Of a stretch of 30,027 nt of DNA, positions 29,573-30,027 are shown in pieces; position 1 is the first letter of the stretch; each line of letters opens with the position of its first letter. A program made the position numbers and the translations under genes. The notes under the pieces were generated by a model. It ran no database searches, was not told the DNA's origin, and was given only the letters and a program-made list of their open reading frames with translations. Source of the DNA: a virus. Its lineage: Duplodnaviria > Heunggongvirae > Uroviricota > Caudoviricetes. The stretch spans positions 1 through 30,027 of IMG/VR virus record IMGVR_UViG_2609459840_000012. The stretch is one strand, 5' to 3'.

Positions 29573-29574
29573 GT

Positions 29575-29602
29575 AAAAAAAACGGGACCACGGCCAGTCC
29601 CG
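29575..29602 (-). terminator. Intrinsic terminator for leftward (minus-strand) transcription; weak on plus strand
   Basis: Stem CGGGAC / GTCCCG with an 8-nt loop; on the minus strand it is followed by U8. It would stop read-in transcription from the host promoter at the right. Confidence 0.6.
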
Positions 29603-29916
29603 GAACCATGAGTTTTTTAGGGTATTAGTTTGTTATCATAATTAGCGTGCTAAGTATGCCATATCAGGTTGATTAGTGAAGTGATGTTGTTCGCATTTTT
29701 GCACGGCAGGGGGATTCAGATTTTTTATAAAAATGGTGAGTCTGGCTGGATTGAATGCCTCTTTTTTGGTTGGTAGTTGATTGAGTCATGGGGCACCTGT
29801 GGGGCATGTATGGGACATTTTTTATCGACAAACTTCACCGAAATTCGTCGACATCGAAAACGAATCATCTGTCCAACCCTTGAAAAACGGCGCTCCTGGA
29901 CGATCTTCGTCGATTT

Positions 29917-30027
29917 TTAAAAATGTTGCGTCACACAGTTAAAGTGGCGGGCATACTCTTCAAGGCTGGTGATCCCCAACCGCACCCATTTAGGATGCGA
30001 CCATTGCGGTAGACCGATGTAAATCAT
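29917..30027 (-). pseudogene. yecE: 5' fragment of a host DUF72-family gene (yecE-like), truncated at the prophage attR junction
   Basis: Minus-strand translation MIYIGLPQWSHPKWVRLGITSLEEYARHFNCV then TQHF-stop. The first 32 residues match my recollection of the E. coli YecE N-terminus; divergence after NCV marks the junction near 29931/29932. Confidence 0.5.

Follow-up and report, generated by a model that had tools for sequence, protein, structure and literature searches.

Positions 29573-30027 very likely form the right attachment site (attR) of a lambda-like prophage, in the order P arm, half-site C, overlap and half-site B', inserted at yecE codon 29-31 by a heterobivalent tyrosine integrase. 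They lie at the right end of the window, which here means the whole 30,027-nt stretch of viral DNA that was analysed. The switch from phage to host DNA is abrupt: phage homology stops and yecE homology begins, both at the core. The outer edge of the P arm carries phased GGG(G/A)CA repeats, which are very probably arm-type sites of the integrase, judging from comparison of related attachment sites.

The prophage junction lies inside yecE

The window closes with lambda-like tail genes, and in the 455 bases after the last of them, the DUF4376 gene, the sole annotated gene is a minus-strand ORF of 36 codons, whose start codon is at the window edge (Table 1). Its peptide reads MIYIGLPQWSHPKWVRLGITSLEEYARHFNCVTQHF up to the stop codon. 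The last 96 bases of the window encode residues 1-32 of YecE, with 100% identity to the K-12 protein. The initial annotation had proposed a DUF72/YecE-like N-terminus that diverges after residue 32 and stops four codons further on, and comparison of this end with E. coli yecE bore it out exactly. Of 5,426 complete E. coli genomes searched, 5,423 contain the yecE portion and just 5 match all 455 bases. The same junction occurs in approximately 7% of complete E. coli genomes.

The closest genome is that of E. coli EC100 (99.6%), which differs from the window region at two positions and is identical to it over 29693-30027. Past the junction EC100 continues with yecD, aspS and nudB; the truncated yecE is annotated there as a partial pseudogene, with yecD next to it. 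Approximately 49 kb to the left, EC100 has the remainder of yecE, the core, a 428-aa tyrosine integrase and then a DUF1233 excisionase (E = 2e-29). The integrase contains a PF12167 arm DNA-binding domain at residues 7-70 (E = 5.5e-24) and a PF00589 domain (E = 3.7e-18). With its end at the start codon of yecE, the window covers neither attL nor the integrase; both were taken from EC100. Within the set of 5,426 complete E. coli genomes, 392 have an attL junction with the same integrase and 491 have the P arm. No genome matching the entire window was found, and the rest of the prophage is mosaic. No stx gene is annotated in the stretch of the EC100 prophage that was read, and the corresponding part lies outside the window.

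The earlier proposal of a right prophage junction within a yecE-like gene is upheld by this exact YecE end, together with the other end of the prophage as represented by its relative EC100, where the same core was found beside the integrase. At the EC100 attL (L003, 8746-8762 and 7965-8762) an in-frame ORF that begins with GTG overlaps the stop region of the integrase, and in this ORF 25 phage-derived codons are fused to yecE codons 33-272. The EC100 annotation labels this predicted chimeric ORF an intact 265-aa DUF72 protein.

Table 1. Features of the window and sequences of the aligned core sites (left half-site, overlap, right half-site).
Feature	Position	Strand	Sequence	Remarks
gp11-like	1071-1604	minus		
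Gam	1750-2280	minus		
MuB-like	3633-4565	minus		
MuA-like transposase	4637-6724	minus		
HTH repressor-like ORF	7142-7687	plus		
J-like tip protein	23642-27031			
Lom	27099-27698			
Collagen-repeat tail fibre	27763-28956			
DUF4376 tail-fibre assembly-type gene	28964-29572			
3' flank of tail-fibre module	29573-29771			co-inherited with the DUF4376 gene; no gene detected
Intrinsic leftward terminator	29575-29602	minus	CGGGACTGGCCGTGGTCCCG, then T8	hairpin 29602-29583, T8 29582-29575
P arm of phage attachment site	29788-29928			left border is a module boundary common to all related phages
Predicted arm-type site 1	29788-29795	plus	ATGGGGCA	variable copy
Predicted arm-type site 2	29799-29806	plus	GTGGGGCA	within 17-mer GGGGCATGTATGGGACA
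Predicted arm-type site 3	29810-29817	plus	ATGGGACA	support as for site 2
First TTCGTCGA copy	29844-29851	plus	TTCGTCGA	unconserved; probably no specific site
Core-proximal block	29889-29923		GGCGCTCCTGGACGATCTTCGTCGATTTTTAAAAA	near-invariant from E. coli to Klebsiella attPs
Truncated yecE' ORF	29917-30027	minus		32 host codons, 4 phage-derived codons and stop
Half-site C, phage-derived	29929-29935		CGTCACA	differs from attB at 29930, 29931 and 29935
Overlap (crossover), 7 bp	29936-29942		CAGTTAA	only stretch common to attR, attL, attB and rebuilt attP
Half-site B', host-derived	29943-29949		AGTGGCG	as in K-12 yecE; phage counterpart at attL is TGTGACG
attB (K-12)			CTCCACG CAGTTAA AGTGGCG	
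attR (window)	29929-29949		CGTCACA CAGTTAA AGTGGCG	
attL (EC100)			CTCCACG CAGTTAA TGTGACG	
attP (rebuilt)			CGTCACA CAGTTAA TGTGACG	

Strand exchange is confined to seven bases

The core sites were aligned in the orientation of the window, with its attR set against K-12 yecE and the EC100 attL. Because position 29935 is phage-type and position 29943 is host-type, strand exchange is confined to 29936-29942. The initial annotation had placed the junction near 29931/29932. The junction itself stands, but its position does not: strand exchange lies 5-10 bp further right, and 29931/29932 is the point where protein-level similarity to YecE ends. The rebuilt attP is a perfect 7-bp inverted repeat (CGTCACA / TGTGACG) around a 7-bp spacer, and analogous inverted repeats are found in relatives with other cores. 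Inverted half-sites around a short spacer are the classical core layout of tyrosine recombinases.

yecE is an established insertion site of Stx and other lambdoid phages (PMC8065619, PMC8112680). Experiments have delimited a 21-bp att for the phages that use it, GTCATGCAGTTAAAGTGGCGG (Nakamura et al. 2021, PMC8112680), and window 29930-29950 (GTCACACAGTTAAAGTGGCGG) agrees with this att at 19 of 21 bases. The yecE lambdoid and Stx prophages (PMC8112680; LC567829, LC616079 and others) share with the window the host site and an arm that is approximately 90% identical from 29788 onward, and the EC100 integrase is 98% identical to that of Stx2_KH16-043, a member of the yecE-integrating group. These prophages differ from the window in their phage half-site (CGTCATG, against CGTCACA here). 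Left of 29788 the window has another tail-fibre flank, without their dinI/ykgJ cassette.

The left end of the window has a different origin. Window 1-7933 is the early region of a Mu-like transposable prophage (junction 7933/7934), which was inserted after approximately codon 48 of the lambdoid small terminase gene. In EC100 this gene is intact, and EC100 is 100% identical to the window from 7934 onward at the junction. As the Mu-like element splits the terminase gene, the lambdoid prophage has probably lost DNA packaging. Three GTATCAAAT(G/A) repeats near the Mu-like end (at approximately 7762, 7815 and 7910) resemble transposase-binding sites. The insertion also means that the integrase end of the prophage lies beyond the Mu-like element, where the expected order would be the yecE remainder, CAGTTAATGTGACGG and then the integrase.

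The terminator travels with the tail-fibre module

The leftward terminator was found by a pattern scan and folds as an 8-bp hairpin with five G-C pairs. Relative to EC100 it has an extra C in the loop (position 29591), which leaves the stem unchanged. It is the first terminator that transcripts reading in from yecD-yecE' would meet. The initial annotation had described it as blocking read-in from the host, and its presence and orientation are as described, but it is not a device linked to the attachment site. Region 29560-29771 also follows the DUF4376 gene in prophages that occupy other sites, in 59 E. coli genomes, and in some of these genomes it is itself followed by a leftward ykgJ gene. 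The terminator region is absent from all 42 phage records that share the att arm. Since it is inherited with the tail-fibre gene elsewhere and is absent beside the same att arm, the terminator is a generic module-end element and is not specific to att.

A counterpart of lambda tI/sib would end integrase transcription past attP in the circular phage and would allow retroregulation. In the circular phage the integrase gene does read through the core and the P arm toward the terminator, which lies approximately 400 nt past the stop codon. The inheritance of the terminator with the tail-fibre gene at unrelated prophage sites, its absence beside the same att/int module in 42/42 phage records, and a folding that gave no extended RNase III-type or sib-like hairpin nevertheless make such a role unlikely.

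A search of 29300-30027 against Rfam at a permissive threshold returned no RNA family. Relatives carry dinI or ykgJ between the tail fibre and the arm, and no remnants of either were found in 29603-29787. The tail-fibre gene upstream contains a long collagen-like G-X-Y tract, which gives rise to spurious long ORFs in other frames as well as on the complementary strand.

Phased repeats mark the outer edge of the P arm

The GGG(G/A)CA repeats begin at 29790, 29801 and 29812 and are phased at exactly 11 bp, in agreement with the three repeats at about 11-bp spacing that had been noticed at 29788-29817. Even when one mismatch is tolerated, the window contains a single phased triple, and 0/100 shuffles contain one. 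The repeats are located at the outer edge of the arm, about -150 to -120 from the crossover. Arm homology begins at 29788, or elsewhere at 29797-29808, and never further left (42 phage records and 491 E. coli genomes). The 17-mer that includes site 2 has an identical copy, oriented alike, in the P' arm of the EC100 attL, about +66 to +84 from the crossover. In total the P arm has three copies of the repeat and the P' arm two, and their sequence is unlike that of the core.

The number of P-arm copies shifts by exact 11-bp units: there are three in the window and VT1-Sakai, and two in Stx1_14040 and Stx2a_1447. The same difference of three and two, in exact 11-bp steps, is visible when window 29788-29817 is set against L018 and L019. 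Predicted site 1 is present in the E. coli phages and degenerate in the Klebsiella phages.

Nine attPs were compared, of which five had been found without using the motif. The other four were retrieved by the repeat motif and give no independent evidence on the repeats. Across the nine the tandem repeat pair is retained in both arms while the spacers diverge, with integrases that are 60-98% identical. The Klebsiella phages RothC, Mulock and RCIP0034, detected by BLAST, keep the tandem pair with integrases that are 75% identical; Mulock and RCIP0034 were detected via the core-proximal block alone, and the RothC match (29800-29942) overlaps the repeat pair. The viral contigs found from the repeat pattern only were L012-L014 (integrases 61-69% identical) and L015, which is a near-copy of phi330. 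Among them the core-proximal block is present in L012 and L014 and absent from L013. In Mulock, RCIP0034, L012 and L014 each feature is confirmed, because these sequences were ascertained via the other one.

Conservation of the integrase itself points in the same direction. In VT1-Sakai and phi330, which integrate at yehV, the P arm is approximately 90% identical up to the core and the core is different. Residues 1-99 of the yehV-type and yecE-type integrases are 100% identical, against 78-79% for the remainder. The N-domain was the most conserved domain in 6/9 comparisons and tied with the catalytic domain in one. Its conservation follows the arm repeats, not the cores. VT1-Sakai (Sp15), YYZ-2008 and BP-4795, all at yehV, resemble the window in the P arm (29788-29934, approximately 90%), in the three repeats and in the conserved block; they differ from the window prophage in their core (CACGCGCGTAACGTGAC) and in their target. 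In phage phi330 (L008, PV189401) the yehV-type core of approximately 20 bp is tandemly duplicated at about 2345-2390, where CACGCGCGTAACGTGACAGG occurs twice. The duplication possibly arose as an artefact when the phage sequence was assembled from the ends of the prophage.

The suggestion of the initial annotation that the repeats are candidate arm-type sites of the integrase thus has strong comparative support, from the 17-mer in P', the five attPs found without the motif, the 11-bp steps in copy number and the identity of the N-domain. A role in binding excisionase or some other factor is quite unlikely, as is the possibility that the P' copies were kept only as codons of the integrase C-terminus. 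The P' copies do overlap the last codons of the integrase (VPYMPH, within the conserved tail (V/A)P(Y/C/S)MPH), and coding constraint on this C-terminus could add to their conservation. The P-arm copies, however, are non-coding and yet contain the same 17-mer, so coding constraint cannot account for them. The repeats are also present in both arms, unlike the usual sites of directionality factors, which are normally restricted to one arm (as in lambda). Finally, the integrase has a dedicated arm-binding domain, and the conservation of this domain tracks the repeats and not the cores. The literature on arm-type sites of yecE and yehV phages was searched, and no binding study of this integrase family was found in it.

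A conserved block adjoins the core

The initial annotation had also listed two TTCGTCGA repeats in the arm. They are present, with a small shift in coordinates (29844-29851 and 29906-29913), and are the window's only copies; as a meaningful pair of repeats or sites they did not stand, as only the second copy is in a conserved block. Among shuffles of the 148-bp arm, 10% contain an exact 8-mer direct repeat, as do 27% of 148-bp segments of the real sequence. The first copy reads TTCATCGA in VT1-Sakai, phi330 and Stx1_14040 and is unrecognisable in the Klebsiella phages. The pair was rejected as a specific repeat because of this chance level and the unconserved first copy.

The core-proximal block holds the second TTCGTCGA copy, a palindrome (GACGA-TCT-TCGTC, 29899-29911) and two CGAT motifs at a distance of 10 bp. 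Going by the P arm of lambda, excisionase and/or a host bending protein may bind to this block. A scan of the P arm with the IHF consensus gave a best score of two mismatches, with three such matches against approximately one expected. In our own reading of the attP alignment, a WATCAR-like motif occupies a fixed position in the P' arm.

The pattern scan also called the block terminator-like on the plus strand, which would make it a weak rightward terminator (GACGATCTTCGTC and then a T run) closing the late operon, and not a protein site. Its stem, though, has only five pairs. In the Klebsiella relatives the stem is weakened (GACGATATTTGTC) while the sequence outside it is invariant, a pattern that fits sequence-specific recognition better than RNA structure. 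The terminator reading is therefore very unlikely.

A 19-nt direct repeat with 16/19 matches connects 29724-29742 and 29914-29932 (TTTATAAAAATGGTGAGTC and TTTTTAAAAATGTTGCGTC), and the 10-mer GAGTCTGGCT from it is also found in the P' arm at attL. As a relic of a second att site it was rejected: its local alignment score is 23, shuffles gave 17.8 +/- 2.3 with values up to 25, and it is probably a chance match.

Internal yecE' fragments in other phages

Fossils of such a junction do exist. The phages phi80 (L005, JX871397, positions 2969-3150), mEp237 and P-EibC carry internally the block, the C-O-B' core, the 36-codon yecE' pseudogene and a few yecD bases. Their core is CGTCACG-CAGTTAA-AGTGGCG, and approximately 14 bases match the K-12 sequence upstream of yecE (the 3' end of yecD). 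This looks like the trace of an ancestor that was aberrantly excised from yecE. The phi80 integrase does not use this internal yecE'; the attP on which it acts is annotated approximately 1.1 kb away in the phi80 record.

That the window junction is itself a fossil attR inside phage DNA, captured by aberrant excision of an ancestor and no longer a live boundary between phage and host, is extremely unlikely: the window does stop at the yecE start codon, so that continuity with the host is not directly visible, but the fossils are only approximately 90% identical to it and are without arm-type repeats, the identical EC100 stretch runs on into host genes, and yecD is annotated under every record listed among complete E. 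coli genomes for the full 455-bp match.

Discussion

The junction is of a known type. It belongs to the published family of yecE-integrating lambdoid prophages, and its identification is correct and ordinary. The only element not found in the searched literature is the map of arm sites, which is a prediction of a standard kind. As a discovery the junction has little weight, given that yecE is a common site and that the same junction is widespread in E. coli. What the analysis gives is an exact prophage boundary (crossover 29936-29942, arm start 29788) and a testable prediction of the integrase and accessory sites in a family of integrases carried by many Shiga-toxin phages.

The layout closely resembles that of lambda. 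Both have the order P arm, core and host half-site, a 7-bp overlap with inverted core-type sites, and short arm repeats that are unrelated to the core and located at about -150 to -120 and +65 to +85. Both also have a separate N-terminal arm-binding domain, an excisionase gene beside int, and attR at the tail-fibre end of the prophage. The differences are in the components: here the arm motif (ATGGGRCA) and the core are unlike those of lambda, the arm domain is PF12167 and the excisionase DUF1233. Lambda has 2 + 3 arm sites, and here the proportion is reversed, with three sites (or two) on the P side against two on the P' side. Unlike in lambda, the P' sites are located inside the integrase coding sequence, the P arm has no clear IHF consensus, and the insertion target is a protein-coding gene, which is disrupted.

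By this likeness, the catalytic and core-binding domains of the integrase would bind C and B' and exchange strands at both edges of the 7-bp overlap in the manner of lambda. The N-terminal domains would hold the tandem ATGGGRCA repeats at 29788-29817, one helical turn apart, together with the two P' copies (about +66 to +84). In excision, 29889-29923 would be bound by the excisionase, probably aided by a host bending protein, and the P arm would thereby be bent, bringing arm-bound integrase to the core. The terminator would halt leftward transcripts, whether read-in from yecD-yecE' or integrase read-through in the circular phage, before they enter the late genes in antisense.

Taken together, the sequence comparisons make it reasonably likely that ATGGGRCA represents the arm sites of a widespread PF12167 integrase family, in which a fixed arm and N-domain have been naturally joined to varied core-binding and catalytic regions, with yecE, yehV and other loci as targets, and in which the P' sites double as PxMPH codons. 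Its members occur in lambdoid phages of both E. coli and Klebsiella, Stx as well as non-Stx. If this reading is true, the family would be a natural example of modular retargeting by a site-specific integrase. The yecE and yehV types have arm and N-domain in common and differ in their cores. Comparing them indicates which part of the protein governs the choice of target, a matter of potential interest to integrase engineers.
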